A DNA stretch of 64,000 nt from positions 8,121 to 72,120 of the forward strand of contig JAUIKM010000017.1 in the NCBI GenBank assembly GCA_030430495.1. Reading direction: 5' to 3'. Position numbers and translations under genes: made by a program. The number at the start of each line of letters is the position of its first letter. Position 1 is the stretch's first letter. Source of the DNA: a bacterium. GTDB taxonomy: Bacteria; Bacteroidota; Ignavibacteria; Kapaibacteriales; UBA7675. The notes under the pieces were generated by a model. The model did not search any database and was not told where the DNA came from. It saw nothing but the letters and a program-made list of their open reading frames with translations. This document shows, piece after piece, positions 2 through 31,758 of this stretch.

Positions 2-3000
2 GAAACAACAATCGCAGTGCCACTGGAAATTACTCGGGACAACACGTCACTCAGCTATGTGGCAGCAATGGACATCGACACCGTGCAAACCTTCAATAAC
101 ATGGCGCTTCCTCAAGACTACAGCGTCGCGGTGCTGGATGCGGACGGACAGATTGTTTACCACTCCGACAATCAAAAAAGCGGAAGTGAACACTTTCAAC
201 AGGAATGCAACTGGGACCGCGACCTGGCGGGCCTGCTGAACGCGCGCACCGCCGAAGTCATCACCATCAAATACCTCGGAAAATTTAAACGGCTGTTCAC
301 AATGCCGATTCAGGGCAGTAACTGGACGGTTGTTGCCTACTACGACGTAGAGTCCTGGATTCACGACCTCAACTTCACGGCTCTGGCGACAGCCACGGTA
401 TTCGGCCTGTTGACTTTTGTTCTGCTTATCGCCGTACTTACCCTTATAGTCACTGTGCCCGGCCTGAGTGCGACAGCCCTGTGGCCGGACCCCAACGGAA
501 CCAGCGTGTACCTCTTCCTGGCCGGGTTAATCGCATTAACATTCCTGTTCCTGCTTTGCTGCCCGTCACTATGGGATGCGGACAACACAATGGTGCTGGC
601 CGTCACTCTGCCGACCTTTGTTTTAGTGTTTGTGTATCTGAGTCTTTATCGACGGCATCACTACCACCGCGCTTTTGGCACTCTGTATTTCATGTTTACG
701 CTCTATTTTCCTGTCATTGTAATACTGCAATCAGGCGGCAGCCTGACACAGGCTCTGCTACTGGTTTTGGGTGCAATGGCGCTTGTGGGGATTTTGCTGC
801 TGAGAAGGTGGCCCGGGTTAGCAACCGTGCTGTCAGAAAAATTGGAAGTCGAGAAGGCGGGCAAGGTCGTCAAGTGGATCGTTGTTAAATTCGCCCTGAA
901 AAACACAAAAGAAGCGGCCGGAGCAATAGCGGGCGACAGCAAGGACGAACGTCAAAGCGGCAGCGGAGACGTACAAAATGGCGACAACGGAAGCAAACAC
1001 CAGAATAGCGGAATCAACATTGGCATTCAGGCCTGGCGCATTTATCTGCCCCTGGCCGGCACCCTCGTGTCAGTCGTCACTCTGTTCTGTTTCATTTATC
1101 TTGTGCTGGTCGCAGAAACCCTGCCGGCTTCAGTCGTTTTGGTCAACCTGATGGTCTGCATCCTGACGCTGACCGCCGGATACTTCATCAGCAGAACAAA
1201 CACCGTCCCAATTGCCGGCGACAGCACGGAAGAAGAAAATCTCGCAGACACGACACCACAAGGTCGGTATTACGCGAGCGATCTGGCCTATGTTAACAAA
1301 CACCGGATTATGATCTTCACAATGGCCTTGTCGATCGGTTTCATTCCGGTGTTGGTCCTTTTTGAATTGTCGCTCGATGCGGCCCTTCACTCCTCGCTGA
1401 TTGAAGGGCAACAGGACCTGGCCGGCAAGGTGTTCGACCTTCATGCCGGGGCGAAAAATTCGACGCCCCATGCCGTCAACGAGAGTTGTTACGAGGGAAC
1501 GACCGACGTGTTTTTCACCACAAAAATGACCTTCTATCCAGCAACAGACCCGACCGGAGCAAGCCTTTACCAAAGTGCTGAGAGTCGGAACGGCAACATC
1601 GCATTTGGACAAATCGTGAGAGACGTTTTCCTCCGTATGGAACTCCAGTCTTCACAGTCCAGGAAAAACGGCTATCTGTTGCAAAACATGGCGCAAGACA
1701 GCTCGAGAGTTGTTCGCTTGACCAATTACTCTCCCAAGGCGCTGTGTACTGTGCACACCGATCCCGGCGGCAATGTGGTTTACAGTGAAAGCAGCATTTT
1801 TAACTTTTCATTGTGCAACTTCGCACACACCGACCTCAAGAGTTGGATCAGACTGGTCGTGGCGATGGCGGGGCTTCTCATTGCGTATGTTATAATCTTC
1901 CATATATCCAGACACTTTTACAGGAGGGTTGTTCTTTGGGAGTTGTTCCCTATCTCACGCAGGGGTATTCCAGCGGAAACACTGTACGACGTCATTCTCC
2001 AATGTATCAAAGCAAGACAGGAGAGCCGGAACAATCACAACAACTGCAAACCGCTGTACATTGTATACCGTCCATTGACGCCTGTAGAAGATTTCAGGGA
2101 ACCGCTGATTAAATGGTTTCAGTCCAAAAGTGTTGAAACCAAAGTGACAATCAAGTCAATTGAAGACATCATCGAGCTGTCCGAGCATCCTGGTATATAT
2201 TCCGTTAAAAAATCGACTTTCCTGGTCGATGCCTTTGACCTCGAGGCGATTGTTACGGAAAAGAACCAGACCTTTCTGATCGCTGTCAACAAACTCCACA
2301 AGCTTTGCAATATTCAGATTGTCATACTGGGGAGCATCACACCGGCAAATGCTTTCCTGCCGGATGACTTCGGTTCGGAAGGCCCTTCCCAGCCAAAGAG
2401 CGACGCGGCCAAGGCGGAAGGCGCGGAGTCCAAAAAGGGACATCCCACCCCGGCAACGCTTGTCAACATTGCCAACAGCTTTGCAGACTGGGACGTGAAG
2501 TATTCGCGCGACAACCCGCTTGAAGCGTCATTTAACCCGGAAAACTCGAACGACATGGTCAGCAGTTTCAGAACCCGAAACTCGGGCAAATACGACACCT
2601 TCAGTCTGGACAAACTGGAAGTGCTGCTGCTGGAAGAATGCCGTTTTGCACCCTGGATGCGCCGCCTTGTCAATTCAATTTTAGCGGAAGCCGACAATCG
2701 CAAGTTGCTGTTCACGCGCGAACTGTTGTTGAATACGATCCTGTTACAGGCAAAACCTTTCCATCTTTCCTGCTGGCATTCGTGTTCCCGCAGCGAAAAA
2801 ATCATTCTGGCAAACCTGGCCAAAGAAGGATTGATTAACGGTAAAGACCCGGTCGACACTTTAAGTTTGTTGAACCGGCGGATAATCTCTTTTGCACCGC
2901 ACCCACAAATATTGAGCCCGAGCTTTGAGCAGTTCCTGCGCGGCAAAGACATTCAGGAGGAAGCGCAAACTCACGAACAGCAGGCCGGAAAAGGTTCCTG

Positions 3001-3178
3001 GGAGGTATTGCGATATCCTATCATTGCAATCATGCTCTTCGCGGCCGGCCTGCTTGTGGTCACACAGCAGGATTTCGTCGATACCACCCTCGCACTGAGC
3101 GCTTCGGCATCCACAATACTGGGTGTGTTTGTCAAGTGGGTCTCCGGCTTCAAAACGCCCAAGCTTCCATTCGCATAG
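2..3178 (+). CDS. Giant polytopic membrane protein, paralog A (5'-partial; the reading frame is open to the window edge). It has a Cache-like periplasmic module, ~10 TM helices, and a large cytoplasmic domain of unknown function with a C-terminal TM anchor
   Basis: No stop upstream of the first in-frame GTG at 17, so the gene continues off-window. Residues 1-130 align with residues ~690-820 of the downstream 1648-aa protein (…RRIFTMP…W T(L/V)(I/V)VY(F/Y)…), and the C-termini share WxSCSRxEK(V/I)(L/I)LANLA(R/K)(D/E)G(I/L)(V/I)NGK. A clustered run of TM helices follows the Cache-like strand motif SNWTVVAYYDVE. Confidence 0.8.
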   Translation, partial: ETTIAVPLEITRDNTSLSYVAAMDIDTVQTFNNMALPQDYSVAVLDADGQIVYHSDNQKSGSEHFQQECNWDRDLAGLLNARTAEVITIKYLGKFKRLFTMPIQGSNWTVVAYYDVESWIHDLNFTALATATVFGLLTFVLLIAVLTLIVTVPGLSATALWPDPNGTSVYLFLAGLIALTFLFLLCCPSLWDADNTMVLAVTLPTFVLVFVYLSLYRRHHYHRAFGTLYFMFTLYFPVIVILQSGGSLTQALLLVLGAMALVGILLLRRWPGLATVLSEKLEVEKAGKVVKWIVVKFALKNTKEAAGAIAGDSKDERQSGSGDVQNGDNGSKHQNSGINIGIQAWRIYLPLAGTLVSVVTLFCFIYLVLVAETLPASVVLVNLMVCILTLTAGYFISRTNTVPIAGDSTEEENLADTTPQGRYYASDLAYVNKHRIMIFTMALSIGFIPVLVLFELSLDAALHSSLIEGQQDLAGKVFDLHAGAKNSTPHAVNESCYEGTTDVFFTTKMTFYPATDPTGASLYQSAESRNGNIAFGQIVRDVFLRMELQSSQSRKNGYLLQNMAQDSSRVVRLTNYSPKALCTVHTDPGGNVVYSESSIFNFSLCNFAHTDLKSWIRLVVAMAGLLIAYVIIFHISRHFYRRVVLWELFPISRRGIPAETLYDVILQCIKARQESRNNHNNCKPLYIVYRPLTPVEDFREPLIKWFQSKSVETKVTIKSIEDIIELSEHPGIYSVKKSTFLVDAFDLEAIVTEKNQTFLIAVNKLHKLCNIQIVILGSITPANAFLPDDFGSEGPSQPKSDAAKAEGAESKKGHPTPATLVNIANSFADWDVKYSRDNPLEASFNPENSNDMVSSFRTRNSGKYDTFSLDKLEVLLLEECRFAPWMRRLVNSILAEADNRKLLFTRELLLNTILLQAKPFHLSCWHSCSRSEKIILANLAKEGLINGKDPVDTLSLLNRRIISFAPHPQILSPSFEQFLRGKDIQEEAQTHEQQAGKGSWEVLRYPIIAIMLFAAGLLVVTQQDFVDTTLALSASASTILGVFVKWVSGFKTPKLPFA

Positions 3179-3637: not shown

Positions 3638-6600
3638 ATGCCTACTCCAAATGCCCCGCGCAAAAAACTCCGCGTTCTGTCTTTCCTGATGATCGTCGCC
3701 ATCGCGATGGCCGCGGGCTACTATTTTTCGTTCTATACGCAAAAACGGGAGTACGTCGTCGACAGAAATTTCCGGCGTCTGGGCGTGATTTCCGAGCAGA
3801 TCGAAGCGCGCATGGACGGCGTGCACAACATCCTGGAAAATGCGGTCGAGAACATCGGCATCGATTCCACGCGCCGCGATTCCCTTATTGAGGTAGTAAG
3901 CCGGATAGAAAAAAATATTGAGGAACAGAAAACCGCGATCATTAACAGCCAATCCGACAAGGAAACAGTCAGTCAGGTAATTGAAGAATCGATTAAAAGC
4001 ATCCAGACCGGCCGCGCCAGGAGCGACGCAAAATTCACCGATATCCGGCGGCAGGAAACGAGTCAAAAGATCAGCCGCCAGGCGCTGCAACTAAACCAGG
4101 AGCTGGCGCGCGCACAGGACGCCGCACCTCGGGCGGAAGAAACAGACAACTCCAATGTCAACGCCCGCCAACTGGAAGATCTGCAGAATAAACTCGGCGA
4201 AGCACAGGCCGCCCTGGAATACATTAACTACCGCGAACGCCTGGCCGCAGCCATCGGCATTATTCCCTTTGCCACCCTTGAGTATGCCAATACCGTTTCA
4301 TCTGCCAATCATACACAGGCCGGAGACGGCGCGGCAGATGGAGGTGAAGCGGAACAGAATGAAAAGACTGATATTCTACAGCCGTTCAGCAGCAGCATCG
4401 AAAATGTTGAGTTAATCGGCCAGAAGCTCTACTTGTCCTACCTCAACAATGCCGGCAACGGTTCCGACCTCATCATCAGGGTGCGTATTGATCTGGAAGA
4501 GATGATCGCGCAGCAGATCGGCGATGTGATTTTTGACGACGTCTTTCTGGCAAAGTCCGGCGGCGAAGTGATCTACCAGCACAACAAACACCGCGGCAAC
4601 GTGCGCAGTTTTGACAAGGTGCAGGACTTAAACAACGATGAAACATCGTTTGAATTCGGCCAGCTGATAAAGTCGGGCGGCCTTGTCACGGCACAGCTTT
4701 CCGGGCGCGAAAACGTTCTGTTTGCACGACCCTTGCAGATGGAAATCGGCACGCGCGACAGCACAAATTTCAACTGGGTTCTCGTCGGGGCGGTGCCGTC
4801 GAATACGTTACTGAGCGAGAGCATGGCGCTGCCGACCAACACAATTCTCGTCTTTGTGTTTGTGGCGGCGCTGCTGATTCTGGTCTGGCCCCTGTTAAAC
4901 ATTCTCGGCGCGGGCACGTTCACGCGCCTGCGCAAGTTGGATCTGGCTTTTCTTGGACTTTCCGCGACGCTTGGCTCCGCCCTGATTGCCCTTTTGATTG
5001 TCGATCAGTATCAACTGACCAATCTGCGCAAAACGATGGACAATCAGCTGAAAGCCACGGCCGAAGAAGCGCACAACAACTTCCACACTGAGCTGCATCA
5101 GGCATACAGTCAGTTGCGTTTCCTGGCCGACGCCGTCGCGCCCGCGCTCGACTCAACTTACATCGAATGGGAAGACAACCCCTTGACCATTGTCACGCGA
5201 CGCTCGATCGACGACACACGCACGGTGCGCCTGACACTCGAAGGCCAGCTGCCGCGCACGCACAACATGTTTAACTTTGTGCGCGGCGACACGTCGGACA
5301 CGGCCGCCCCCGGCGGCTGGGACTACGTCAATTTTGACCGCGTCTTTTTTGCCGATCCATCGGGCGACATAAAGGTCAAGCTGGCCGCAGAGTCCGCCGC
5401 AACGCCCTTTCTTAACGTCAGCTCGCGCGACTACTTCCGCGACGTGCAGCAGCGGAACATGCTGGTCCTGCACGAAGGCGACCACGATCACGAGAGCGAC
5501 GACCACGGAGCACAACACGGACACGGCAAGGAGCGGTTGAATAAACACATCGACACGGTTGAGTTCGCGCTGAGTCAACACCACTCCTGGGCCAGCGGCG
5601 CCTACGAAACAACGATGGCAATTCCGGTTAATCCGGATACAACGCGCGAGGCGACCTGGCTGGCCGGCATGGACATCGGCACACTGGCCAGTTTTGACAA
5701 ACCGCTGCTGCCGCCGACGTTTAATTTCGTGCTGGTGGATGAGCATGGCAACGTGATCTATCACACCCGGCCGGAGCGCAGCGGCTTCGAGAATTTCCTG
5801 ACGGAATGCGACGGGAATCAACGTCTGGCGGCAACACTGGCGGGGCGGCGCAGCGATTGGTTAAGCAGCACCTACTGGGGTGAAAACAGGCGCATTTTTA
5901 CCATGCCGCTGCACGACACGCCCTGGACGCTGATAGTGTATTTCAGCGAGGAAGCCGTCCTGGACGGCAGCAATATCGTTATGCTGACGAGCACGCTGGG
6001 ACTGTACGGCGTTAACTTATTGCTGTTGTTGATTCTGGTCGTTCTCGGCTTTTCCAGCAGCAGCGTGCAGCTCGACTGGCTGTGGCCGAGCCTGCTGGAA
6101 TACCGCACCTATCGCAACCTGAGTCTTATTTACCTGGGATTTCTGATTTTCTACGCCGTCACTTTAACGCAGGATGTGCGCTTTGATCACGTGATGGTTG
6201 CGGCGCTGCTGCTGCCCGTGTTTTTTGTCTTCATAACCTACTTTTCGCTTAAACGCCAGGAGAAGTTAAACTTTCGCCTGGCGCTGATTATTCTGCCGTT
6301 TGCGGGATTCTATCCGCTCGCGGCGGCGGTGCAGTTGTACAACAGCCAGTTAATTCACTCGCCTGCCTGGAAATTTGTGCTGCCCCTCTTGTTGGTCAGC
6401 GTGTTGCCGGCGGCAATTGTCGGCTTGCGTAAGCTGATGAACCGCGCGAAGGGCATCAGGCGGGACTGGCGACGCGAGCTGCTGTTTAACGTCGTGACGT
6501 ATCACCTTCTCATTCTTGTTTTGCAGACAAGGTATCAGTTGTGGGACAACAAGATCGAGTTCTTCTATCACCTGATTCTGATTGCGATGACGGCCTACGC

Positions 6601-8584
6601 GCTCTACCTGTTCCAGTCAAAGCGCAATTATCTGGCGCGCGACCAGTATCTGCACGAATTGTACCGCCACCGCTCCGGCCAGGTGGCGGGCGTCCCGACC
6701 GCGCGTTTTTTCCGGCGCACCTATCGGGCATTTCTCATTATCCTGGTGATGACGACCGGCATCCTGCCGGTGATTGCCTATTTCATTCTTGCGAACGAGG
6801 CCACGTTCAATCTCCTGATTAAACACTCGCAGATTACCATGGCGCACCAGGTGCTCGAGCGCGAACACGAAGCCGCCGAGCGCGTAGCGCAGTTAAACAC
6901 CAATGAAGCGGACTACATCTACAACCGTCTGAAGCACGACGAACGAGGCATGTACCACGGCCCCTTCTTTGAATCCGGATTGCTCTGCACGGCCAGGCCA
7001 GTGCCCGCGGGCATCCGCGATACATTCGGCTTCGCCGGTATAATGGACACGGTTGTGATGCACGATCCGGAAAAAGACCCGGTCGGCAGCATTCTGCCGC
7101 GCCTGTTAAGCAGGCTGAGTCTGGCTGCCGAAAACAAGGTTGAACTGCGGCGTTATCTCGGCACCAGAGCGGCCGACAGCATCTGGAATACCGGCAGGTC
7201 GCTGGACGGCAGCAAAGCAGCCATGATTCACAAACGCCTGAACGGACCCGACAATGTCCTGATGCTCAGCTCCGGCGGAGTGCCGCATTTGAGAGCCGAC
7301 GGCTTCCGATTTGAGGAGACATCCATTTTTGTCGGCTTGTTCGTCGCCAGCCTGGCTTGCATTATCCTGTTGTACTGGGCCAGCTACAAGTTTGGCGAGC
7401 AGGTGCTGCTGAGTCGTTTTGCCAATCCGCGCTCCGGCCGCGGCACACACATCGAAATCCCGAAAGACGCGCCGCTGTTTATTATCAGCCGTCCTTTAAT
7501 TGCCGTGGACGAAATTATCGAGAACAGCACGTTCGACACGATTGATCCCGAATGGAAAGACCGTGTGATGTTCCTGGACCGCGCCGAACTGCTCGCTTTG
7601 ACAAACGACAAGATTGAAGCTATGGCGGAGACGGGCGTGCCGCTCTGCACCATCGAAGCATTCGACCTGGATCCGGAGTATTCACAAGCCAACATCCAGT
7701 TTATGCTCCGTGTTAACAAACTCAAGGTCGCGGCGGACTGGCAGGTAATTATTGTCGGCAGCGTCGACCCGACGATCGCCTTTCAGGATCAGTCCGTCAC
7801 GGCGGCCGGTGGCGGCAAAGCGGCGGATGCAGGCGCTGAGGGCGACGACAAAAAAGCTGTGCCTGGAGTCGACTCCAAAGACAACCTGGCGGCAGCGCGC
7901 GCCTACTCCACATGGCAAACCGCGTTTTACCAGGAAATGCACGATTCACAAATGTATCGCGCCGACCTGGAGGTAATAGTCGACGACCACAATCTCGACA
8001 GCGAACATCTGAAACAGTGCATCCGGATTATTGCACATGAGTTTCACATGACGCGCTGGTTGCGCCACCGCGGACGCAATCTGATGCGCCGCATCTGCCG
8101 CGATTACATGGGCTTTGACGAAGCGGCGCTGCGCCGCCAGATCATGCTCGAAGCCGAGCCGCTCTACCAGGCCATCTGGAATTCCTGCTCACGCGGTGAA
8201 AAAGTCCTGCTCGCCAACCTGGCGCGCGACGGCATCGTCAACGGTAAAAATAAACGCGGCGTGTACAGTCTGTTAAACAAACAGCTCATGATGCTTGTGC
8301 CGGACCCCAAACTGATCAACGACAGTTTCCGCGAGTACCTGCAGCGCGACGACATTCAACAGGAAGCCGATGCGCTGACGGAAAAATCCTCGCGTACGTC
8401 GTGGGAAAACCTGCGCACGCCTTTGATCGTTCTGCTCGCCGCCGGCGGCGCATTCCTGATCGTCACACAGCACGAAATCATCGACATGACAACCGCGATA
8501 ATTTCAGCTGTGACGGTGCTCGTGCCCGGCATCATGAAAGCGCTGGACTTTTTCCGCAATGGACGTGTGGCCAGCGGCGGCTGA
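3638..8584 (+). CDS. Giant polytopic membrane protein, paralog B (1648 aa). It has an N-terminal TM, a coiled-coil/Cache-like periplasmic module 1, two TMs, a Cache-like periplasmic module 2, ~8 TM helices, a ~620-aa cytoplasmic module of unknown function and a C-terminal TM
   Basis: ATG start with signal-anchor VLSFLMIVAIAMAAGYYF. Two segments end in the Cache-like strand motif (FNWVLVGAVPSNTLL and TPWTLIVYFSEEAVL), each followed by TM helices. No His-kinase, GGDEF/EAL, MCP or ATPase motifs recognisable. The C-terminal ~120 aa are conserved with paralog A. Confidence 0.85.
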   Translation: MPTPNAPRKKLRVLSFLMIVAIAMAAGYYFSFYTQKREYVVDRNFRRLGVISEQIEARMDGVHNILENAVENIGIDSTRRDSLIEVVSRIEKNIEEQKTAIINSQSDKETVSQVIEESIKSIQTGRARSDAKFTDIRRQETSQKISRQALQLNQELARAQDAAPRAEETDNSNVNARQLEDLQNKLGEAQAALEYINYRERLAAAIGIIPFATLEYANTVSSANHTQAGDGAADGGEAEQNEKTDILQPFSSSIENVELIGQKLYLSYLNNAGNGSDLIIRVRIDLEEMIAQQIGDVIFDDVFLAKSGGEVIYQHNKHRGNVRSFDKVQDLNNDETSFEFGQLIKSGGLVTAQLSGRENVLFARPLQMEIGTRDSTNFNWVLVGAVPSNTLLSESMALPTNTILVFVFVAALLILVWPLLNILGAGTFTRLRKLDLAFLGLSATLGSALIALLIVDQYQLTNLRKTMDNQLKATAEEAHNNFHTELHQAYSQLRFLADAVAPALDSTYIEWEDNPLTIVTRRSIDDTRTVRLTLEGQLPRTHNMFNFVRGDTSDTAAPGGWDYVNFDRVFFADPSGDIKVKLAAESAATPFLNVSSRDYFRDVQQRNMLVLHEGDHDHESDDHGAQHGHGKERLNKHIDTVEFALSQHHSWASGAYETTMAIPVNPDTTREATWLAGMDIGTLASFDKPLLPPTFNFVLVDEHGNVIYHTRPERSGFENFLTECDGNQRLAATLAGRRSDWLSSTYWGENRRIFTMPLHDTPWTLIVYFSEEAVLDGSNIVMLTSTLGLYGVNLLLLLILVVLGFSSSSVQLDWLWPSLLEYRTYRNLSLIYLGFLIFYAVTLTQDVRFDHVMVAALLLPVFFVFITYFSLKRQEKLNFRLALIILPFAGFYPLAAAVQLYNSQLIHSPAWKFVLPLLLVSVLPAAIVGLRKLMNRAKGIRRDWRRELLFNVVTYHLLILVLQTRYQLWDNKIEFFYHLILIAMTAYALYLFQSKRNYLARDQYLHELYRHRSGQVAGVPTARFFRRTYRAFLIILVMTTGILPVIAYFILANEATFNLLIKHSQITMAHQVLEREHEAAERVAQLNTNEADYIYNRLKHDERGMYHGPFFESGLLCTARPVPAGIRDTFGFAGIMDTVVMHDPEKDPVGSILPRLLSRLSLAAENKVELRRYLGTRAADSIWNTGRSLDGSKAAMIHKRLNGPDNVLMLSSGGVPHLRADGFRFEETSIFVGLFVASLACIILLYWASYKFGEQVLLSRFANPRSGRGTHIEIPKDAPLFIISRPLIAVDEIIENSTFDTIDPEWKDRVMFLDRAELLALTNDKIEAMAETGVPLCTIEAFDLDPEYSQANIQFMLRVNKLKVAADWQVIIVGSVDPTIAFQDQSVTAAGGGKAADAGAEGDDKKAVPGVDSKDNLAAARAYSTWQTAFYQEMHDSQMYRADLEVIVDDHNLDSEHLKQCIRIIAHEFHMTRWLRHRGRNLMRRICRDYMGFDEAALRRQIMLEAEPLYQAIWNSCSRGEKVLLANLARDGIVNGKNKRGVYSLLNKQLMMLVPDPKLINDSFREYLQRDDIQQEADALTEKSSRTSWENLRTPLIVLLAAGGAFLIVTQHEIIDMTTAIISAVTVLVPGIMKALDFFRNGRVASGG

Positions 8585-8654
8585 CCGACTTAAACAGCGT
8601 TTCAGGCGGAAATATGACGGACCTGGAACAAAGCGGCGGCTTCCGGCATTCAAC

Positions 8655-8718
8655 ACGCTGACAAACAAGAGGAAAAAGCAAGCCGCCCGCTTTGCAGAAG
8701 CGGAGGCGAAGCGCTCAG
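8655..8718 (-). repeat. Dispersed intergenic repeat, full-length copy (~92% identical to the copy at 52118-52181, opposite orientation). GC hairpin followed by a T-rich tail; terminator-like for the minus-strand arsR operon
   Basis: Reverse complement CTGAGCGCTTCGCCTCCGCTTCTGCAAAGCGGGCGGCTTGCTTTTTCCTCTTGTTTGTCAGCGTG versus 52118 CTGAGCGCTTCGCCTCCGCTTCCTCAAGCGGGCGGCTTGCTTTTTGCTTTTGTTTGTCGGCGCG. Sits immediately downstream, in the minus sense, of the arsR stop at 8843. Confidence 0.75.
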
Positions 8719-8842
8719 GCCTCAGGCGGTAAGTCCGCGGAGAAGGCCGATAAAACGCATTTAAACAACAACCGCCATACGGCGTCCCGTACGGCGGTGC
8801 GGAATGTTAACATCTTGAGAGTTGGATCGGGAGAATGTGCGC

Positions 8843-9187
8843 TCAGTCCCCGTCCGGATTTTCGTCCAGGTAGCGTTCCAGTGCGTCCAGTTTTTCCGTC
8901 CAGAAAACCTGATACTGCTGCACCCAGTCGGCCACCTCCTTTAACTTGTCGAACTGCGCGTGGCAGGTGCGTTCGCGGCCATTCTTGCGAATGTTAATCA
9001 AGCCCGCCTCGGACAGAATTTTAACGTGTTTGGCGACGGCCTGACGGCTGGATTCGAAGTGGTCGGCCAGCGCCAGCATGCTGTGCGAACGGTCCGCCAA
9101 CAGTTTAATAATCCGCCGGCGCGTCGGGTCCGCTATGGCGTCAAACACGTCGCGATGTGGCCCGCTGTACTCACTTGGCTGTACCAT
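8843..9187 (-). CDS. ArsR/SmtB-family HTH transcriptional regulator
   Basis: 114 aa. Winged-HTH core …DPTRRRIIKLLADRSHSMLALADHFESSRQAVAKHVKILSEAGLI… is typical of ArsR. Overlaps the upstream SRPBCC gene by 17 bp (operon). Confidence 0.85.
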   Translation of the reverse strand: MVQPSEYSGPHRDVFDAIADPTRRRIIKLLADRSHSMLALADHFESSRQAVAKHVKILSEAGLINIRKNGRERTCHAQFDKLKEVADWVQQYQVFWTEKLDALERYLDENPDGD

Positions 9188-9638
9188 CGACTTCGTCCAG
9201 ATATGTAACGAGACTTTCGCTGAAGACAGACCAACCGCGATTGATGTCCGCGTACGTGCCTTCCTTCTGCACCGCCGACTCGTCCAGATTGCGGTGAAAA
9301 ATCGTTAACTCCGTCCCGTCCGCGTGATCCGCCAGGCTGAACGTCACTACCGATTCGTCGTTCATCAGGTTTGTCTTAAACGTCCAGGTGATGGACGTGC
9401 CTTCCTCAAATTCGAGCAGGCGACCGCGAATAAAACCGTCGTAACCTTCACCGCAATCGTCCATCGAAGGCTCTTCCTGAAATGTTAACTCCGCGCCGCG
9501 ACGCAGCTCAAAGTTGTTCCGCATGAACCAGCCGGCAATTTCCTCCGAACGAGAAATTGCGCGCCAGACGCGATCGCGTGAGTGTTTATACACCTTTTTG
9601 ATGACGACTTGCTGGGTTGCTTCCTTCACCATAATCAT
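9171..9638 (-). CDS. SRPBCC-superfamily protein (Activator-of-Hsp90-ATPase/AHSA1-like), a frequent operon partner of ArsR
   Basis: 155 aa, soluble, in the classic ArsR+SRPBCC two-gene arrangement. Sequence pattern …WRAISRSEEIAGWF…TWTFK… is consistent with the Aha1/BPI fold. Confidence 0.65.
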   Translation of the reverse strand: MIMVKEATQQVVIKKVYKHSRDRVWRAISRSEEIAGWFMRNNFELRRGAELTFQEEPSMDDCGEGYDGFIRGRLLEFEEGTSITWTFKTNLMNDESVVTFSLADHADGTELTIFHRNLDESAVQKEGTYADINRGWSVFSESLVTYLDEVDGTAK

Positions 9639-9678
9639 GCCTCCATTACAACAGTTGACAATTGCTGAACGGTCGCCT

Positions 9679-9744
9679 TATGCAACCGATTGATTGCACA
9701 AATATAATGGAGTCCGCCTCAATACGCAACCATAAGGTTGCATA
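9679..9744. promoter_or_regulatory. Candidate ArsR-type operator/promoter region upstream of the SRPBCC-arsR operon (minus strand)
   Basis: Two (A)TGCAACC boxes: TTATGCAACCGATTGATTGCACA, and the 9-bp imperfect palindrome TACGCAACC-ATAA-GGTTGCATA at 9723-9744. Both lie in the 116-bp intergenic region directly 5' of the operon start at 9638. Confidence 0.4.
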
Positions 9745-9754
9745 TTCTGAAGAT

Positions 9755-11533
9755 TTATGCCCCGGCGTCCGTCGTCGGCAGAGTGAACCAGATTTGAGTA
9801 TCGGAGTGATGCAGATGCACGCGCTGCGTTGAGCCCGCGCTGAGCTGCAATTCCCGCTCGAAGAAATAGAGGGCCTGGCCCCAGTGAACGTCGTCGCCGT
9901 CGGGGCCGCTGTTGAGTGTGAGGCCCTCGCCCAGGTCGAGCTCAAACCAGAACATGACGCCGTCGCAGGCGCCGCTTTCCAGCGGAGAAAATTCCAGATC
10001 GTGACGATGTCCGGCAGCCACGGCAGGCGAAGCGGGCGGCCGATAAAAATCGAGGGCCAGCGCTTCCACGACGGGGCTGAGCAGCCGGCAGGGCTCGCGG
10101 CGCGCGTCGATACCGACGTATTCCCAGGGAATGCGGAAGGCGTCAAAAGCCGAGAGATCAAAACCTTCGATCTGCGCAACGGGATTGACGAGGCGCAGTT
10201 TGGGGGCGCGAACAAGCGCGCAGTAAATCCGCGCCGCGGACGGAATCAGGCGCACATTCTCCGACGCAAGCTTGCCGGCGGCATGGCGCATGGTCGGCAG
10301 AATGCCTTCGCCCAGCAGCCCGGCATCGACGACTTCGGCCAGGATGACGTCGGCCGGACGCGGCAATTCGTGCCCGACGCGCAGACCGGTCGACTTGGCT
10401 TCGAACAACTGAATTTTATCGCTCATGGAATTGTCAGCCAGAACGCGGCGGGTGACGGGCGCAATCAGCGAGTTCATCTCGCAGGCGACGACGTCGCCGG
10501 CGCCGGCGCGCACGGCCATCATGGCGAGCAGCCCGCTGCCGCTGCCGATATCCAGCACCAGATCGTCCGGGCCGACGGCCTGCCGGATTGCGGCGTCAAA
10601 GCGACTGTTGCGCGCCGTATCGCTGAGCAGCTGCAGATGCCAGGCGGGGAAATTGCGGCGACGCGCGCGGCGCAGATTGCGGTCGGCCAGAAAATCGTCG
10701 GGATCGCGCGCCAGAATCTCCTCAAAAGCCGCAATCGACTCATCAACGCGATTCAGCATAAAAAGCGCATTGGCGCGGCGGCGCAGCGCGTCGCTGTTGG
10801 CGGGGTCGACCGCAACGGCCTGTTCATAACTTTCCAGCGCCGCCTGGTAGTCGCCGTTGTCCTCGTGCGCCGTGCCCAGGGAAACGTGCGCCAGCGACTC
10901 TTTCGGTTTGTCTTTCACGAGTGCGCTCAGCAGGTCGATCGCCGCGTTGACTTCGCCGTTCATACACAGAACATTGCCGATGTTGACGCGCGCGTGCACA
11001 TCGCCCGGATCGACGTTCAGCACTTCTTCGAACAGGGCGCGCGCTTCGTCCAGCCGCCCCTGCATGCGCCGCACATTGCCCAGGTTTACGAGCAGCGGCG
11101 CTTGCCTGGGCCGCAGTTTGCGCGCCGCCTCGTACTCCTGTGCCGCTTCATCAAGCCTTCCCTGCTGCGCCAGCACGTTGCCGAGGTTGAACAGATTGCC
11201 GAAATCGTCGGCTTTGATGTCGATCGCAGCGCGGTAGGCCCTGATCGACGCGTCGAACTCACTGCGTGCGTAGAGCACGTTGCCGAGCAGTCCGTGGGCA
11301 AAACCGTTGTGCGGATCCGCCTTGACGGCTCGCGCCAGCAGTTTGTGCGCCAGGTCCATGCTGCCGCGCTGATAGTGGATGGAACCGAGGTTTGCCAGGG
11401 TGTCGGCGTGTTTGGGGTTGGTCTGCAGCACGCGCTGATACGACTTGATCGCCGCATCAAATTTGCCCTGCAACTGACTGCGGAGAGCTTCCTGGAACAG
11501 CTGCTGCGCCCTGCCCGTGAGTATTTTGGCCAT
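9755..11533 (-). CDS. TPR-repeat protein fused to a PRMT-like (protein arginine N-methyltransferase family) class I SAM-dependent methyltransferase domain
   Basis: N-terminal ~300 aa contain many 34-aa TPR repeats (…A(L/I)xxYxxALxxxPxxxxAxxNLG…). The C-terminal half has motif I VLDIGSGSGLLAMMAVRAGA, the acidic post-I residue VVACEMNS, a double-E loop ADVILAEVVDAGLLGEGIL, and a THW-like loop VHWGQALYFF. Order and spacing are as in PRMT1/Hmt1. Confidence 0.75.
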   Translation of the reverse strand: MAKILTGRAQQLFQEALRSQLQGKFDAAIKSYQRVLQTNPKHADTLANLGSIHYQRGSMDLAHKLLARAVKADPHNGFAHGLLGNVLYARSEFDASIRAYRAAIDIKADDFGNLFNLGNVLAQQGRLDEAAQEYEAARKLRPRQAPLLVNLGNVRRMQGRLDEARALFEEVLNVDPGDVHARVNIGNVLCMNGEVNAAIDLLSALVKDKPKESLAHVSLGTAHEDNGDYQAALESYEQAVAVDPANSDALRRRANALFMLNRVDESIAAFEEILARDPDDFLADRNLRRARRRNFPAWHLQLLSDTARNSRFDAAIRQAVGPDDLVLDIGSGSGLLAMMAVRAGAGDVVACEMNSLIAPVTRRVLADNSMSDKIQLFEAKSTGLRVGHELPRPADVILAEVVDAGLLGEGILPTMRHAAGKLASENVRLIPSAARIYCALVRAPKLRLVNPVAQIEGFDLSAFDAFRIPWEYVGIDARREPCRLLSPVVEALALDFYRPPASPAVAAGHRHDLEFSPLESGACDGVMFWFELDLGEGLTLNSGPDGDDVHWGQALYFFERELQLSAGSTQRVHLHHSDTQIWFTLPTTDAGA

Positions 11534-11752: not shown

Positions 11753-12478
11753 ATGACCAGATCCAGATTTGTCCTTACTGCCTGTTTCTTTTGTTTGTCA
11801 TGCAGCCTGATGTTCTCAGCCGCGCCGCGGGCGGCGGCGCAGGACAAACCCGAGCCGCCCGATTCGCTGATGGTGAAGACATTCAGCGTGCGCCACTATT
11901 CCGACTTTGACGACTGCGACCTGGAGATCAGGTATCCACAGATTGTGGACGAGGACGGCGACCCCTACGATGACACGATCGACTATCCGGCGCTGACGGC
12001 CATCAACACGGAAATCTGCCGCGCGCTGATGCTGGCGCCCGAGACCGTTCTGGAGCAGTGCGAACCATTGGCGGTCAAGCGCATCGACTATCGCGTCTAC
12101 TACAATCGCGACGGCTGGCTGAGCATGATTATCGAAACGCGCGTGGTCGACAGTTTTGCCGGCGACGAGGAACTGGACGCGATGATCTTCCAGGAGGCTT
12201 TCCACTTTAACTTTCTGACCGGCAAACGCCTGCTCTTGTCCAACATGATGCAGGGCAACTACGTCGAGGCGCTGCAGGTTTTCCTGCAACGCGCTCTGGT
12301 GGCGCGCGGTTATGAAGACGCCACGCCCTACGTGGAAGACGACACGGCATTTTACCGCGACGGCGACAACCTGGTGTTCATCATTGACATCGAAACGCCG
12401 CCGGAACACGTCGCAATTCCGTTCAAAGCCGTCAAGGAGTTTCTGACGGACGACGTGCCGCTGCGCCACGACGACTGA
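11753..12478 (+). CDS. Hypothetical secreted protein (signal peptide; possibly DUF4163/DUF3298 RsiV-like fold)
   Basis: 241 aa. N-terminal signal peptide …LTACFFCLSCSLMFSAAPRAAAQ; acidic mature protein. The start is uncertain because nt 11783-11814 are also a copy of the dispersed repeat core. Confidence 0.55.
   Translation: MTRSRFVLTACFFCLSCSLMFSAAPRAAAQDKPEPPDSLMVKTFSVRHYSDFDDCDLEIRYPQIVDEDGDPYDDTIDYPALTAINTEICRALMLAPETVLEQCEPLAVKRIDYRVYYNRDGWLSMIIETRVVDSFAGDEELDAMIFQEAFHFNFLTGKRLLLSNMMQGNYVEALQVFLQRALVARGYEDATPYVEDDTAFYRDGDNLVFIIDIETPPEHVAIPFKAVKEFLTDDVPLRHDD
11783..11814 (+). repeat. Copy of the dispersed repeat core (CTGTTTCTTTTGTTTGTCATGCAGCCTGATGTT) embedded in the 5' end of the 11753 CDS
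   Basis: Near-identical to 18533-18568 (TTCTTTTGCTTGTCACGCAGCTGGATGTT). Confidence 0.55.
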
Positions 12479-12621
12479 GAAATTGCCACTGCCCGGCGCG
12501 CAGACGCCGCGTTTGTGAAAAAACAAGTTTAACGGTTCCGCTGCGGGACCAAACAACGCGCAGGTTAAACGGGCCTTAAACAGATGGTCCGGCGCAAATT
12601 ATCAGCTAACGGTGTACAACG

Positions 12622-27320: not shown

Positions 27321-27450
27321 CCGCACCGGCGGAACGTCTGAACCCGCGTCTGTATTCCACGGCCGGGTCCCGGTGTGCGGCCGGCGCGGACACCGAATAA
27401 AACGACAGGGGCTGCGAGACACACAGCCCGCTTGTGTTTTATGTGATTGT

Positions 27451-30400
27451 ATGTTTATTCAGGCAGCCCGGATATTGAGAACGTCAGACACATACCATCA
27501 CGGACCGTTGGTTGCGCGGGCACTGCTCCTGTGCGGCCTGATTCTCCTGTTCGCCATTGCGAATATGCGCGCTCAGGATGAACGCGACTACCTTGGCCGC
27601 GAGTTTTTCCTATGTTTTCCACCGAATATTCACAAAGCGGGCGGACAGTCGCCTCCCGACGACAGCCTCTACATTTACATCAGCTCCGACAGGCCGACGA
27701 CCGGACGGATTGAGTTCAGCGACCGCGAGGGCAATCGATCCGAGCGGCGCTTTAGCATCGAAGATCCCAATCTGGCGCATGTGGAGAGTTTTGCATACAG
27801 CGACTATGAACTGCAGGGCTACAACCTCAACGGCCTGCTCGACAATCCCGACTCACAGAACGAAACGGTTTCGCGCCAGGTTTTTTACGTGGTGGCCGAC
27901 CGCGACATCAGCGTGTACGGTCTCAACCACGCCGGCGCCTCCAGTGATGGTTTTATGGCCTTGCCGGCCGATGTGCTGGACGGATACTATGTGATTCCGG
28001 CCTTTCCGTCGGACACGCGCATTCTCGACAATCGCCCGGCGCCTTCGAGCACGCCCTCGCAGTTTGCCGTCGTTGCGTTGAATGACAACACGGATATTCT
28101 GATCCAAACGAACGCTCCCGTCCCGGTGGCAAACAAAGAGCCAATCCAGATCACGCTGCAGCGCGGCCAATGTTATCTGGTGCAGTCGCGCATTTCCGTC
28201 AGCGAACCGTCGAACGACCTGACGGGCAGCGTTGTGATCAGCGACAAACCCCTGGCCGTATTTGCCGGACACCAGCGCAGCCAGGTGCCGGGCGGAGATA
28301 CTCGGAACGCCGCGACGCAGGATCATATTATTCAGCAGGTAGCCCCCGTTTCGACCTGGGGCAAACAGTTCAGCTTGGCGCCACTGATCGTGACGGGCGA
28401 CGATGACGGCGTCGGCAATGACATTGTCCAGATAGTGGCGGCGCAGGCCCAGACGCGCATTTACATTAACGGCGCGGAAAAAGCTCTGCTGGATGCGGGG
28501 CAGAGCCTGCTGGAACCGATCAGCGGGCCGCTTTTCATCAGTTCGGACGAGCCGATTCACGTGACGCATCTGCGCCACTCTTCTTCGCTGACAGGCGCCG
28601 GTACGCCGCGATTGGGCGATCCCTTTGCCCTGTCGATCACGCCGAAGGAACAGTGGCTGGACAAATACACCTTTTCGACGGCACAGGCATTTTCCAACCT
28701 GAACCGCGAAGACCGCCTGGTATTTGAGTACCAATATCTGATGATCACGCTGCCGACCGGCACGCCGATCGATCTTGCGCTGGACGGCGTGGCCGTCAGC
28801 GACGAAAACTTCACGGTAGCGCCGTTCGGCGACTTTCTCTACGCGAATATTCCGGTGACGACGGGACGGCACGTGCTGCAATCGACCGTTCCATTCGGTG
28901 CGCATGTTTACGGTTTCGGCGAGGCGGACTCATACGCCTTCCCTGCCGGCGCGGCACACACGCCGATCAATCTGGAGTGCAGCGCCGACGCCGGACCGGA
29001 CATAACGGTCTGCCGCGGCGACACGGTAATGTTGAATGCCGTCAGTATCGGTTTTGACGAGCCGACCTTCCGCTGGTCCCCGGCGGAAGACCTGATCAGT
29101 TCGCCTTTTGCCAAACAGCTGCGGCTGCGGGCGATGCGAACCACCTGGTACAAACTGCTGGTACGCGACGAACGCGGCTGCCGCGCAGAAGACTCCGTGC
29201 TGGTCACCGTGACGGAGAAACCGCAAATCAACGCCGGGTCGGATCACGTGATCTGTCCCGGCGAGAGTGTGCAACTGGGATTTGAGGACCCGGGCGTACC
29301 GATCACCCGCGTGCGCTGGACGCCGGCGGACAAGGTCGATGATCCCGCCTCTCCCGCGCCGATCGCAACACCCGGTCAGGCGACCGGATTTATCGTCGAA
29401 GTCGAAACCGCATCCGGCTGCGTCGTTTTTGACACCGTGGTCGTCAACGTGCGCGAACGCCCCGTGGTCGACGCCGGTCCCGACGTCGACATATGCGAGG
29501 GCAGCAGCGCCGAACTGACGGCTACCGGCGGCGTCAGCTATGAGTGGCGTCCCGCGGACGGCCTCAACCGAACCAACATCTTCAATCCCATTGCCAAACC
29601 AGAAAAATCCACCAAGTATTTTGTCAGGGTAACGGACGCTTTCGGCTGCGTCAATGAGGATTCGGTCACGGTCTTTGTGAGCGAATGCCGGCCCTGCGAG
29701 TCGATTTCCGGCATCATCAACGAATATGCTTCGGTTGTGGCGCTGGATTATCCCACGCGGCGCGTGCGCGTCGTCGACGGTTCGGTGTTTGCACCGGGCG
29801 ATCTGGCGATGATCGTGCAGATGCAGGGTGCGGAGATCAACGTTGAGCAGGCGGAAAGCTACGGCCGGATTGAAAATCCGATGTCGGCCGGCGCATACGA
29901 ACTGGTGCGCATAGACAGCATTAGCCTGAACTTGCTCAGCCTCAATCGACCGATTCACAATCAATACGATCCCGCCGGCAAGGTGCAGGTGGTGAAAATC
30001 CCCGAATACGACCACGTTACGGTGGTGGACCGCGTGTTCGCGCGCCCCTGGGACGGCAATGTGGGCGGTGTGGTGGCCATGGCGGCCAACTGCCTGATTG
30101 TGGAAGACACTATTTCTGTGGATACGAGCGGCTTCCGCGGCGGGCGTTATGAAGTGCAATCAGGTTGCCGCTTTGAACCCAATACAACCGCCTGGGTGTC
30201 GGATCAGCTTTGTCGCTTTTCCTATCGCGGCGAAGGCACGGCGAGCTACGGAGTCCCGCCGAATGTCTACGGTCGCGGCGCACCGGCCAACGGCGGCGGC
30301 GGCGGCAACAACCACAATGCGGGCGGCGGCGGCGGCGGCAACGGCGGAGCGGGCGGCAAGGGCGGCAACGGCTTCCGCAACTTCGCCAACTGGGATCAGG

Positions 30401-31758
30401 CCGGCGGCGTGGGCGGGTATCCCCTGTCCAAAATTGCGGCAGCCGATACTTCGGGCCGGCTGTTCATGGGCGGCGGCGGCGGAGCGGGACACGTGAACCA
30501 CACCAACGGTTCCGGCGGTGCGCGCGGCGGCGGCATCGTGTACATCCGCGCGGGCACGCTGCGCAGCACGCCCAATTCGCTGATAACGGCGCGCGGACAG
30601 CACGCGGCAAACGACACTTCGACGCTCAATCCCGACGGATGCGGCGGCGGCGGAGCAGGCGGAACGATTATGCTGCACGTGGACCAGATTCTGGAGGATG
30701 TCGAGCTCGACGTACGCGGCGGCAACGGCGGCACGCGCCTCGCCGAGCAGCAGACAACATCCGGTCCCGGCGGCGGCGGCGGCGGCGGTCTTGTTCTCCT
30801 GTCGCTGAACATCGAAACCAATGACTTCGAAATTTTCACACATACGGCCGGCGGCGCCGCGGGCGAATTGGGTCTGGCCTCCGGCAACAACTACGGCGCG
30901 GCGCCGGGACTGCACGGCGCGATCATCGATTCGCTGAAAGGACGCGGCGTCTACTCCCAGGCAATCTTCGGTCCCTGCCGCGGGTGTTATCCGGTGCGCA
31001 AGGCGACGACGGGAGGCTGCGGCAGCGTCGAGTTCGACGTAGCCGACGCCAATTTTGAGATTGTCAGCATCGAACTGGACGCCGACAGCGACAATGTGTC
31101 GATGGAGACCGAGGAGCTGAATTCGCTGCGCGTCGGCGTGGAAATCGAACTGGACGATCCGCTTCGCGCGGGCAATTATGTGGTCTATGGGCGCAACAGC
31201 AACGGCAAAGAGTCGATTTTCCGCGGCACGATCCTGCCGGAGCCTCCTATGCCGGAGTTGAGTTTCCGCAACGACTCGCTCTTCATCAATTCGAATATTT
31301 TGCCGCGGATCGACTCGATACAGTGGTACAGCGAGGAGCGCGGCGCTTTGATTCAACGCACGGCGGATCGCCTGCCGCTGGTCGATTCCGGCGTGTACTG
31401 GGTGCAGGTCTGGAACGAGGAAGGGTGCTCGGCATTTTCGGAGCGCTACAACTTCAATGCAATCAGCAGTGTGATGTTCCCGCCGCTGGAGCGGCCGCAG
31501 ATCGAACTGAATCTCTTTCCGAATCCGGCGGACAACCTGTTGACAATTCGTTGTCGCACGCGTTTGCTGCAAGGCCTGGAAGTGCAGATAAGCGACGTAT
31601 TCGGGCGCATCGTCTGGCGACGCGCGCTGCCGGACTACCAATCGCTGCATGAAATTGAAGTGGATCTGGACCGTCTGGCGTTGGCGCCCGGGGGATATTC
31701 GGCCGGCATTGTAGCACCCGGCTACAGGACATCTCAGATGTTTATTAAACAACCCTGA
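27451..31758 (+). CDS. Giant secreted T9SS cargo protein (adhesin-like). N-terminal beta-rich domain, at least 3 tandem Cys-framed Ig-like repeats, a Gly-rich beta-solenoid-like segment, and a C-terminal T9SS sorting domain
   Basis: Signal-like N-terminus (…LLLCGLILLFAIANMRAQ). Repeats (I/V)C(R/P/E)G(D/E/S)(T/S)V.L…(F/V/Y)(R/E)W.PA(E/D)…GC…DSV.V.V at 28980-29680. Gly-rich region 30250-30850. C-terminal …ELNLFPNPADNLLTI…VQISDVFGRIVWRR… matches the T9SS CTD pattern. The start at ATG 27451 is uncertain; an upstream in-frame start at 27373 is possible. Confidence 0.8.
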   Translation: MFIQAARILRTSDTYHHGPLVARALLLCGLILLFAIANMRAQDERDYLGREFFLCFPPNIHKAGGQSPPDDSLYIYISSDRPTTGRIEFSDREGNRSERRFSIEDPNLAHVESFAYSDYELQGYNLNGLLDNPDSQNETVSRQVFYVVADRDISVYGLNHAGASSDGFMALPADVLDGYYVIPAFPSDTRILDNRPAPSSTPSQFAVVALNDNTDILIQTNAPVPVANKEPIQITLQRGQCYLVQSRISVSEPSNDLTGSVVISDKPLAVFAGHQRSQVPGGDTRNAATQDHIIQQVAPVSTWGKQFSLAPLIVTGDDDGVGNDIVQIVAAQAQTRIYINGAEKALLDAGQSLLEPISGPLFISSDEPIHVTHLRHSSSLTGAGTPRLGDPFALSITPKEQWLDKYTFSTAQAFSNLNREDRLVFEYQYLMITLPTGTPIDLALDGVAVSDENFTVAPFGDFLYANIPVTTGRHVLQSTVPFGAHVYGFGEADSYAFPAGAAHTPINLECSADAGPDITVCRGDTVMLNAVSIGFDEPTFRWSPAEDLISSPFAKQLRLRAMRTTWYKLLVRDERGCRAEDSVLVTVTEKPQINAGSDHVICPGESVQLGFEDPGVPITRVRWTPADKVDDPASPAPIATPGQATGFIVEVETASGCVVFDTVVVNVRERPVVDAGPDVDICEGSSAELTATGGVSYEWRPADGLNRTNIFNPIAKPEKSTKYFVRVTDAFGCVNEDSVTVFVSECRPCESISGIINEYASVVALDYPTRRVRVVDGSVFAPGDLAMIVQMQGAEINVEQAESYGRIENPMSAGAYELVRIDSISLNLLSLNRPIHNQYDPAGKVQVVKIPEYDHVTVVDRVFARPWDGNVGGVVAMAANCLIVEDTISVDTSGFRGGRYEVQSGCRFEPNTTAWVSDQLCRFSYRGEGTASYGVPPNVYGRGAPANGGGGGNNHNAGGGGGGNGGAGGKGGNGFRNFANWDQAGGVGGYPLSKIAAADTSGRLFMGGGGGAGHVNHTNGSGGARGGGIVYIRAGTLRSTPNSLITARGQHAANDTSTLNPDGCGGGGAGGTIMLHVDQILEDVELDVRGGNGGTRLAEQQTTSGPGGGGGGGLVLLSLNIETNDFEIFTHTAGGAAGELGLASGNNYGAAPGLHGAIIDSLKGRGVYSQAIFGPCRGCYPVRKATTGGCGSVEFDVADANFEIVSIELDADSDNVSMETEELNSLRVGVEIELDDPLRAGNYVVYGRNSNGKESIFRGTILPEPPMPELSFRNDSLFINSNILPRIDSIQWYSEERGALIQRTADRLPLVDSGVYWVQVWNEEGCSAFSERYNFNAISSVMFPPLERPQIELNLFPNPADNLLTIRCRTRLLQGLEVQISDVFGRIVWRRALPDYQSLHEIEVDLDRLALAPGGYSAGIVAPGYRTSQMFIKQP

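Follow-up and report, generated by a model that had tools for sequence, protein, structure and literature searches.

The literature regards protein arginine methyltransferases (PRMTs) as a hallmark of eukaryotes: in reviews, arginine methylation is "found in all eukaryotic systems," and a review of PRMT7 states that its origin "warrants further investigation." For activity, PRMT modules must pair as dimers or pseudo-dimers, and PRMT7 consists of two tandem modules, the second of which is inactive, with a zinc finger between them (PMC8399567). On the bacterial side, Aravind and colleagues have noted PRMT-like domains computationally and proposed that bacterial "peptide methylases" are groups sister to the PRMTs of eukaryotes. 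CheR–TPR fusions join a bacterial class I protein methyltransferase to a tetratricopeptide repeat (TPR) domain (PMC3447774), and SznE/StzE, an arginine-guanidino methyltransferase, converts free L-arginine to N-omega-methyl-L-arginine (PMC11705231, PMC11429834, PMC10849742, PMC12637814). Here we analyze a gene in a 64,000-nucleotide stretch of contig JAUIKM010000017.1 (hereafter the window), from a bacterium of the Kapaibacteriales (Bacteroidota), which encodes a complete predicted enzyme of the PRMT7/9 type, apparently active, behind a long TPR array. We propose, with a probability of roughly 0.6, that the protein is a cytoplasmic S-adenosylmethionine (SAM)-dependent arginine omega-N-methyltransferase of the PRMT7/PRMT9 structural type whose TPR array recruits protein or peptide substrates, which makes it a good but unproven candidate for bacterial protein arginine methylation.

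The window protein joins a TPR superhelix to a PRMT-type catalytic module

The gene is an uninterrupted open reading frame (ORF) of 592 amino acids (aa) on the minus strand (Table 1), with exactly the span given to it by the first-pass annotation, a model's reading of the DNA. The same protein, 100% identical, is predicted as a gene on a public metagenomic contig, where it has the same neighboring genes, and the length of 592 aa is kept in homologs of 93% and 86% identity. The product combines a TPR superhelix of 8.5 repeats, a Rossmann-fold domain with PRMT motifs, and a β-barrel with an arm-like insertion, and its catalytic residues are near-invariant in the family. Pfam assigns TPR families to residues 8 to 285 and the PRMT β-barrel family PRMT_C (PF22528) to residues 433 to 578, above the gathering score, while its PrmA family matches the generic Rossmann segment. 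NCBIfam has no whole-protein model for the window protein; only TPR models match, all below their cut-offs, which is why the NCBI family name is "tetratricopeptide repeat protein." The protein contains one PRMT module only, as it ends five residues past the barrel and no second stretch matches the methyltransferase profile.

When the C-terminal 316 residues were searched against PDB sequences with HMMER, the best match was mouse PRMT7 (E = 1.7e-40), followed by human and bovine PRMT9 (∼2e-36), Caenorhabditis elegans PRMT7 (2e-25), and Trypanosoma brucei PRMT7 (1e-22). Further matches were PRMT1, 3, 6, 8, and 2 and CARM1; nearly all listed entries are named PRMT, and no bacterial solved structure was found among these matches. 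The Pfam, PDB, and Foldseek matches thus bear out the proposal, made at first pass, of a bacterial N-terminal TPR array fused to a PRMT-family catalytic domain.

The window protein carries all six PRMT signature motifs of a published list (PMC12153873). The motifs that the first-pass annotation had quoted, namely VLDIGSGSG, the acidic post-motif I residue E352, the double-E glutamates E400 and E409, and V-H-W, are all present, and the nucleotide coordinates of each motif were checked by translation. VLDIGSGSG and VVACE fit the consensus patterns of motif I (VLD/E-x-G-x-G-x-G) and post-motif I (V/I-x-G/A-x-D/E). Motif II (x-D-I-I) is present as ADVIL at residues 394 to 398, motif III (L-x-x-G-x-x-x-P) lies at residues 422 to 431, and E400 and E409 have the E-x8-E spacing of the PRMT double-E pair. 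The HMMER alignments match E400 and E409 to the double-E glutamates of PRMT7 and PRMT9, and H550-W551 to the THW loop of both; the double-E loop itself, EVVDAGLLGE, also aligns with that of PRMT1 and compares with ETVDAGLFGE in PRMT9 and ELFDTELIGE in PRMT7.

An alignment of 258 homologs shows how strongly these positions are kept. G330, G332, and P431 are present in all 258 sequences, R308 in 257, E400 in 256, E352 and W551 in 255 each, and E409 in 252, while H550 is present in 212 and is otherwise mostly Ala or Cys. Residues W298, H299, and D305 in the stretch before motif I are invariant across the family, and this stretch aligns to WHFIMLNDTKRNTIY of PRMT9 and IHEEMLKDEVRT of PRMT1. The C-terminal barrel has the dimerization-arm-like insertion of PRMTs, and arm motif residues G457, F458, D459, L460, and F463 are each at least 90% conserved, the PRMT1 equivalent being GFDMSCI. 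The best matches are PRMTs, with the double-E and THW-type residues near-invariant among homologs, which is contrary to the refuting outcome named in the first-pass annotation, and by every sequence and fold feature tested the window protein is a member of the PRMT superfamily. It stands outside the PRMT9 and PRMT7 subfamilies because it lacks their tandem modules.

Comparison with PRMT9, PRMT7, OGT, and CheR

The likeness to PRMT9 (type II; human 6pdm/7rbq, bovine 8rbk) lies in N-terminal TPRs placed directly before an active module. Residues 205 to 556 of the window protein are colinear with residues 41 to 421 of bovine 8rbk in the HMMER alignment, PRMT9 is its top Foldseek match (450 columns), and both share the double-E loop pattern E-x-V-D-A-G-L-x-G-E. 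However, PRMT9 adds a second, degenerate module where the window protein has one, its THW loop reads T-C-W rather than V-H-W, and it has only a few TPRs (three) compared to 8.5. The TPR sequence of the window protein is nearest to the consensus TPR and to the TPRs of O-GlcNAc transferase (OGT), and PRMT9 is not among the 60 best PDB matches of the TPR half alone; as the TPR half fails to retrieve PRMT9 there, we do not claim common ancestry of the TPR fusion with that of PRMT9. Hence, the "PRMT9-like architecture" of the first-pass annotation holds for the order of TPRs and module, but not for the number of modules, the number of TPRs, or their sequence type.

PRMT7 (type III; mouse 4c4a/6ogn, C. 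elegans 3wst) has no TPRs, whereas the window protein joins a single module to 8.5 of them and lacks the tandem modules and intermodule zinc finger of PRMT7, and the internal loop Glu of PRMT7 (ELFDTELIGE) is Gly in the window protein. T. brucei PRMT7 (4m38, 5eku) is likewise eukaryotic, without a TPR array, and of lower similarity. The glycosyltransferase domain of OGT and SPINDLY is unrelated to PRMTs, and the resemblance to these proteins is one of function and not of family membership. The CheR–TPR fusions differ in that CheR is a glutamate O-methyltransferase, with other chemistry and fold decoration, encoded in chemosensory clusters; the window gene is not in such a cluster.

Asn occupies TPR position 6 in repeats 2, 4, 5, and 6 of the window protein; at the central repeats, as many as 81 of 94 aligned family members share it. 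This residue aligns with the Asn of the OGT NLA repeat motif, which we take to be the asparagine-ladder position. It is weak evidence, because the same Asn belongs to the TPR consensus.

In the mechanism that we propose, R308, the motif I glycines, and E352 would bind SAM, E400 and E409 would clamp the guanidinium group of the substrate arginine, and H550 and W551 would close the pocket, as in eukaryotic PRMTs. Since single PRMT modules need dimerization, the protein may form a head-to-tail homodimer through the arm at residues 443 to 472, like T. brucei PRMT7 and PRMT1. The OGT-like TPR superhelix could then hold an extended protein or peptide segment and present its arginine to the active site; that the TPR fusion implies protein substrates, as first suggested, is plausible. 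The weakest step concerns the product, which would most likely be monomethylarginine, because the THW loop has His as in PRMT7 and not Cys as in PRMT9, because the loop ends G-E-G as in PRMT7 and PRMT9, and because the SznE product is monomethyl.

SznE-like relatives and the nature of the substrate

Relatives without TPRs provide the main alternative for the substrate. In actinomycetes and the myxobacterium Corallococcus, the TPR-less methyltransferase gene is followed by one for a protein of ∼474 aa that combines a cupin with a heme-oxygenase-like diiron domain (PF14518). SznF, which carries out N-nitrosation in streptozotocin biosynthesis, is built from the same domains. In tblastn searches, three SznF-like queries found a match in 17 of 17 actinomycete and myxobacterial methyltransferase-only loci (L030, L032, L042, L054-L056, L060, L062, L066, L067, L070, L071, L075-L077, L079, and L080; for example, the gene pair at 7782-8879 and 8930-10348 of L054). 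By contrast, they matched none of the TPR-fused loci, and in the 64-kb window no match went below E 0.29. Hosts of these pairs include Streptomyces, Actinomadura, Spirillospora, Sphaerisporangium, and Corallococcus terminator, and the pairs have the look of cryptic pathways to N-nitroso compounds or N-methylarginine. In NCBI, most of the TPR-less methyltransferases go by the name "50S ribosomal protein L11 methyltransferase," apparently in error, while P0323, a protein close to them, carries the Joint Genome Institute (JGI) label "arginine Nomega-methyltransferase."

These SznE-like sequences, assigned by synteny and annotation, form one methyltransferase-only clade in the neighbor-joining (NJ) tree, although the bootstrap of the exact 25-taxon clade is 23%. 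A Jensen-Shannon column ranking over the 25 sequences yielded a putative, computationally derived clade signature of Cys404 (in the double-E loop), Phe473, Arg476, and Asn542, each 92 to 96% conserved; at high thresholds, no strictly clade-specific columns were found for the SznE-like clade. The window protein has A404, V473, D476, and S542 at these positions, and the TPR-fused group also lacks the signature. With neither the signature nor a SznF-like neighbor, the window protein is not of the SznE type.

Nevertheless, the possibility has to be weighed that the window protein is, like SznE/StzE, an N-omega-methyltransferase of free L-arginine (PMC11705231, PMC11429834), or of a small guanidino compound, with the TPRs serving as a scaffold or in regulation, for example by docking a partner. 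The window protein belongs to the same bacterial PRMT-like family as the TPR-less relatives beside SznF-like genes, and a monomethylated guanidino nitrogen, the SznE/StzE product, is also what we expect here. Because the SznE-like relatives also keep the double-E loop and H-W, neither motif discriminates between substrates, and the motifs alone cannot prove a protein substrate. On the other hand, SznE/StzE has no TPRs, and neither its partner gene nor its signature residues accompany the TPR-fused form. It is difficult to see why a small-molecule enzyme should keep an array of 8.5 repeats across phyla, and the PRMT gene is not flanked by biosynthetic genes. We therefore consider free arginine an unlikely substrate, if the strongest of the alternatives; were it the substrate, the TPR fusion would represent an unusual organization of small-molecule metabolism.

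Several observations weigh against our proposal that the window protein methylates arginine in proteins or peptides. To our knowledge, protein omega-N-methylarginine made by a PRMT-type enzyme is not established in bacteria, and the protein-substrate role of the TPR-fused members, the dimerization, and the product type are all putative. In BLAST comparisons, the methyltransferase domain of the window protein scores 190 bits with P0323 (37% identity), which is above any eukaryotic PRMT tested (mouse PRMT7, 126 bits; human PRMT9, 123 bits), and the nearest relatives with an inferable function presumably act on free arginine. Residue 302 (window 10628-10630) is Leu in the window protein and its closest relatives but Met in 254 of the 258 homologs (WHLQLLSD compared to the family consensus WHFxMLAD), and it presumably corresponds to Met48 of PRMT1, a position affecting catalysis and product specificity. 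Finally, the PRMT gene stands alone, with no conserved operon partner, and its context thus gives no clue to the substrate.

The remaining alternatives fare less well. In view of the "peptide methylases" of Aravind and colleagues and of the ability of TPR domains to bind short peptides, the protein might be a tailoring enzyme for arginine in a ribosomal or nonribosomal peptide natural product. This is improbable, as the neighbors in the window encode an AHSA1/SRPBCC protein, an ArsR-type regulator, a secreted protein, and glycyl-tRNA synthetase (GlyRS). No nonribosomal peptide synthetase, gene for a ribosomally synthesized and post-translationally modified peptide precursor, dioxygenase, or amine oxidase adjoins the PRMT gene in the window, and in other genomes SpoU methylase, the most frequent Pfam family among 74 immediate neighbors of TPR-fused genes, accounts for only 4 of them. 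A catalytically dead TPR scaffold, or an enzyme that methylates another nucleophile (lysine, glutamine, or nucleic acid), would accord with the NCBI names, "tetratricopeptide repeat protein" and, for the TPR-less proteins, "L11 methyltransferase," that is, a lysine methyltransferase, and with Leu in place of the near-invariant Met302; given the near-invariant catalytic residues, we regard this as very unlikely. A eukaryotic source of the gene, by assembly contamination or by very recent eukaryote-to-bacterium transfer, as the exclusively eukaryotic origin of the structurally solved relatives might suggest, is effectively refuted by composition and context: the window is bacterial in content (proteins sorted by the type IX secretion system [T9SS], bacterial-type GlyRS, UvrD, Wzz/polysaccharide-export genes, dense intron-free coding), the GC content at third codon positions (GC3) of the gene fits its neighbors, relatives extend across Bacteroidota, Alpha-, Beta-, and Gammaproteobacteria, cyanobacteria, actinomycetes, and myxobacteria, and bacterial members outscore the mutual scores of PRMT7, PRMT9, and PRMT1.

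Distribution of the family

The first-pass annotation regarded PRMT-type enzymes as rare in bacteria, a view that the searches contradict. Relatives were confirmed in at least 165 GTDB species representatives. An exhaustive HMMER scan of the methyltransferase domain against 1.84 billion cluster representatives (50% identity clusters) found 8525 proteins at a cut-off of E ≤ 1e-3; tightening it to 1e-10 left 4096, and 1e-30 left 653, counts that may include eukaryotic PRMTs (PRMT7/9). The best 150 cluster matches score at least 191 bits each, with the methyltransferase domain mostly in the C-terminal half of proteins of ∼450 to 600 aa. A word-indexed search gave 1533 matches, and most of the best 120 combine TPR, PF06325, and PF22528. 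Among the 258 aligned homologs, 225 are extended N-terminally by 100 aa or more, 22 consist of the methyltransferase only, and 11 have two modules.

Among the matches listed, carriers in the Bacteroidota are Owenweeksia, Cryomorphaceae, Saprospiraceae, Roseivirga thermotolerans, and Candidatus Kapaibacterium, the last of which provides the best genome match to the window protein. At only 39% identity, this match leaves the source organism without a close relative among the species representatives. Those in the Alphaproteobacteria are many Azospirillum, including A. brasilense, as well as Nitrospirillum, Niveispirillum, Tistlia, Ferrovibrio, and sphingomonads, and the cyanobacterial ones are Phormidium and Pseudanabaena; Beta- and Gammaproteobacteria, actinomycetes, and myxobacteria are also represented. 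A. brasilense and R. thermotolerans are culturable, genetically tractable carriers. One Bacteroidota metagenome-assembled genome, J06638_10, contains two full-length TPR-PRMT paralogs on separate contigs (L002 and L003), 33 to 34% identical to the query, indicating that some organisms hold more than one copy. In Tistlia consotensis (L050), two PRMT-like cluster members of 835 and 478 aa (6705-9212 and 9220-10656) lie head to tail, 8 bases apart, as the product either of a tandem duplication or of one gene split in two.

In NCBI records, the TPR-fused members are called just "tetratricopeptide repeat protein." Some members bear the JGI label "type II protein arginine methyltransferase," and Pfam PRMT_C also flags bacterial proteins. 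The family is well supported and widespread. A full-text literature search, in which subscription journals were thinly covered, found no experimental study of it, no paper on TPR-fused bacterial PRMTs, and no match to the phrases "prokaryotic PRMT" or "bacterial (protein) arginine methyltransferase." The surprise is limited by the occurrence of the family beyond this window and by the earlier flagging of bacterial PRMT-like domains by Aravind and by automated pipelines, but the annotation gap is worth closing whether the substrate is a protein or free arginine.

Relation to eukaryotic PRMTs

Bacterial members resemble individual eukaryotic PRMTs more than these resemble each other. In BLAST comparisons, the N-terminal module of human PRMT9 reaches 179 bits with TPR-fused proteins of bacteria, compared to 86 bits with mouse PRMT7, which itself reaches 156 bits with bacterial proteins. 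For PRMT1, the highest bacterial score is 109 bits, compared to 62 to 74 bits with PRMT7 and PRMT9. These sequence scores show the bacterial family as "central."

NJ trees were built on 289 to 292 columns with four eukaryotic sequences (three eukaryotic sequences were transcribed from HMMER output; PRMT1 was verified), and bootstraps were run on 138 sequences and 292 columns. PRMT7 (mouse and worm) was monophyletic in 93% of the replicates, an exclusive clade of PRMT7 and PRMT9 appeared in 1% (1/100), a clean split between eukaryotes and bacteria in 3%, and PRMT9 together with bacterial two-module proteins in 41%. We take the trees, also on the direction of transfer, as a lead only, because exact clades are weakly supported, the eukaryotic sequences were few, and the tree method was simple.

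The bacterial two-module proteins (∼645 to 745 aa; P0089, P0117, P0121, P0132, P0135, P0161, P0162, and P0190) have a degenerate N-terminal module and an active-type C-terminal module (VLDIGTGTG, ETVDHSLLGE, T-A-W), the reverse of the module order in eukaryotic PRMT7 and PRMT9. The gene for P0089 (L082 8001-10040) lies in a typical prokaryotic gene array: it directly follows an AAA_21 ATPase gene and a gene of 196 aa that begins before the ATPase gene has ended, and a Dioxygenase_C gene comes directly after it.

A broader reading, which we hold only tentatively, is that the TPR-fused bacterial PRMTs are genuine protein methylators, responsible for a posttranslational modification that is widespread but overlooked in Bacteroidota, cyanobacteria, and Alphaproteobacteria such as Azospirillum, and that eukaryotes acquired PRMT9, and possibly PRMT7, from this bacterial family. 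The second half of this joint reading would derive PRMT9 and PRMT7 from the bacterial family and not from an early eukaryotic duplication. It is suggested by the greater resemblance of the bacterial members to PRMT7, PRMT9, and PRMT1 than of these paralogs to each other, and by the placement of PRMT9 among bacterial sequences far more often than with PRMT7 alone in the NJ bootstraps. If the TPR-fused members do methylate proteins, they would represent a new bacterial regulatory modification with a defined writer enzyme, and the origin of PRMT7 and PRMT9 would become directly testable.

Genomic context

The positions of the PRMT gene, its motifs, and its neighbors are collected in Table 1. The gene for GlyRS is also upstream of the PRMT gene and divergent from it. 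For the neighborhood study, ORFs were called and clustered in 80 genome loci and the window, and no neighbor family was common to more than 10 of these loci. A conserved neighborhood as a route to the substrate was rejected on this ground, and the downstream AHSA1 and ArsR pair was rejected as a set of conserved partners, as the pairing is not kept beside other TPR-PRMT genes. Membership in a defense system was likewise rejected, since PADLOC returned only generic TPR, methyltransferase, and winged helix-turn-helix (wHTH) matches. The GC3 of the PRMT gene is 0.766, inside the range of the neighboring genes. No Rfam families and no tRNAs were found within the window.

Table 1. Coordinates of the PRMT gene, its predicted features, and adjacent elements in the window
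Feature	Position	Strand	Basis or remark
Complete coding sequence, TPR array and PRMT-type methyltransferase, 592 aa	9755..11533	-	ORF list, identical public gene call, equal-length homologs
TPR superhelix, residues 8-294, 17 helices, ~8.5 repeats	10652..11512	-	
Pre-motif I helices, residues 295-319, FPAWHLQLLSDTARNSRFDAAIRQA	10577..10651	-	PRMT N-terminal SAM-lid motif WH.xML.D..RN..Y
Rossmann-fold SAM-binding domain, residues 320-430	10244..10576	-	AlphaFold2 (AF2) model, Pfam PrmA/Methyltransf matches, PDB alignments
Motif I, VLDIGSGSG, residues 326-334	10532..10558	-	Coordinates verified by translation
Post-motif I, VVACE, residues 348-352; E352 is the ribose-binding acidic residue	10478..10492	-	Motif definition PMC12153873
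Double-E loop, EVVDAGLLGE, residues 400-409	10307..10336	-	Aligned to PRMT9 and PRMT7 loops
Motif III, LASENVRLIP, residues 422-431, invariant Pro last	10241..10270	-	Motif definition PMC12153873
PRMT β-barrel domain, residues 431-587	9773..10243	-	
Putative dimerization arm, residues 443-472, with conserved GFDLSxF	10118..10207	-	Helical insertion in barrel (AF2 model); role inferred
THW-type loop, V549-H550-W551	9881..9889	-	Aligned with PRMT7 DHW, PRMT1 THW, PRMT9 TCW
AHSA1/SRPBCC gene	9171-9638	-	Downstream of PRMT gene, same strand
ArsR-type wHTH regulator	8843-9187	-	Overlaps AHSA1/SRPBCC gene by 17 bases
Terminator-like hairpin, strong, 12 pairs	8798-8771		After ArsR-type gene
Secreted-type protein, 241 aa, signal-peptide-like N terminus	11753-12478	+	Divergent upstream neighbor; no Pfam or PADLOC match
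ORF of 246 aa opposite the 241-aa neighbor, probably a shadow ORF	11816-12556	-	

Elsewhere in the window, a 1053-aa ORF (17-3178, plus strand) has no match at all, and a 1648-aa ORF (3638-8584, plus strand) is multi-pass-membrane-like, with only a subthreshold Pfam match to dCache_1. Two further plus-strand genes encode large proteins that are secreted or at the surface: a 1461-aa IgGFc_binding and CHU_C-associated Ig protein (27373-31758) and a 1255-aa WD40/ASH/Ig-like protein with a T9SS Por_Secre_tail sorting domain (53918-57685). From its T9SS sorting domains and CHU_C-type Ig domains, the organism belongs to the Fibrobacteres–Chlorobi–Bacteroidetes (FCB) group.

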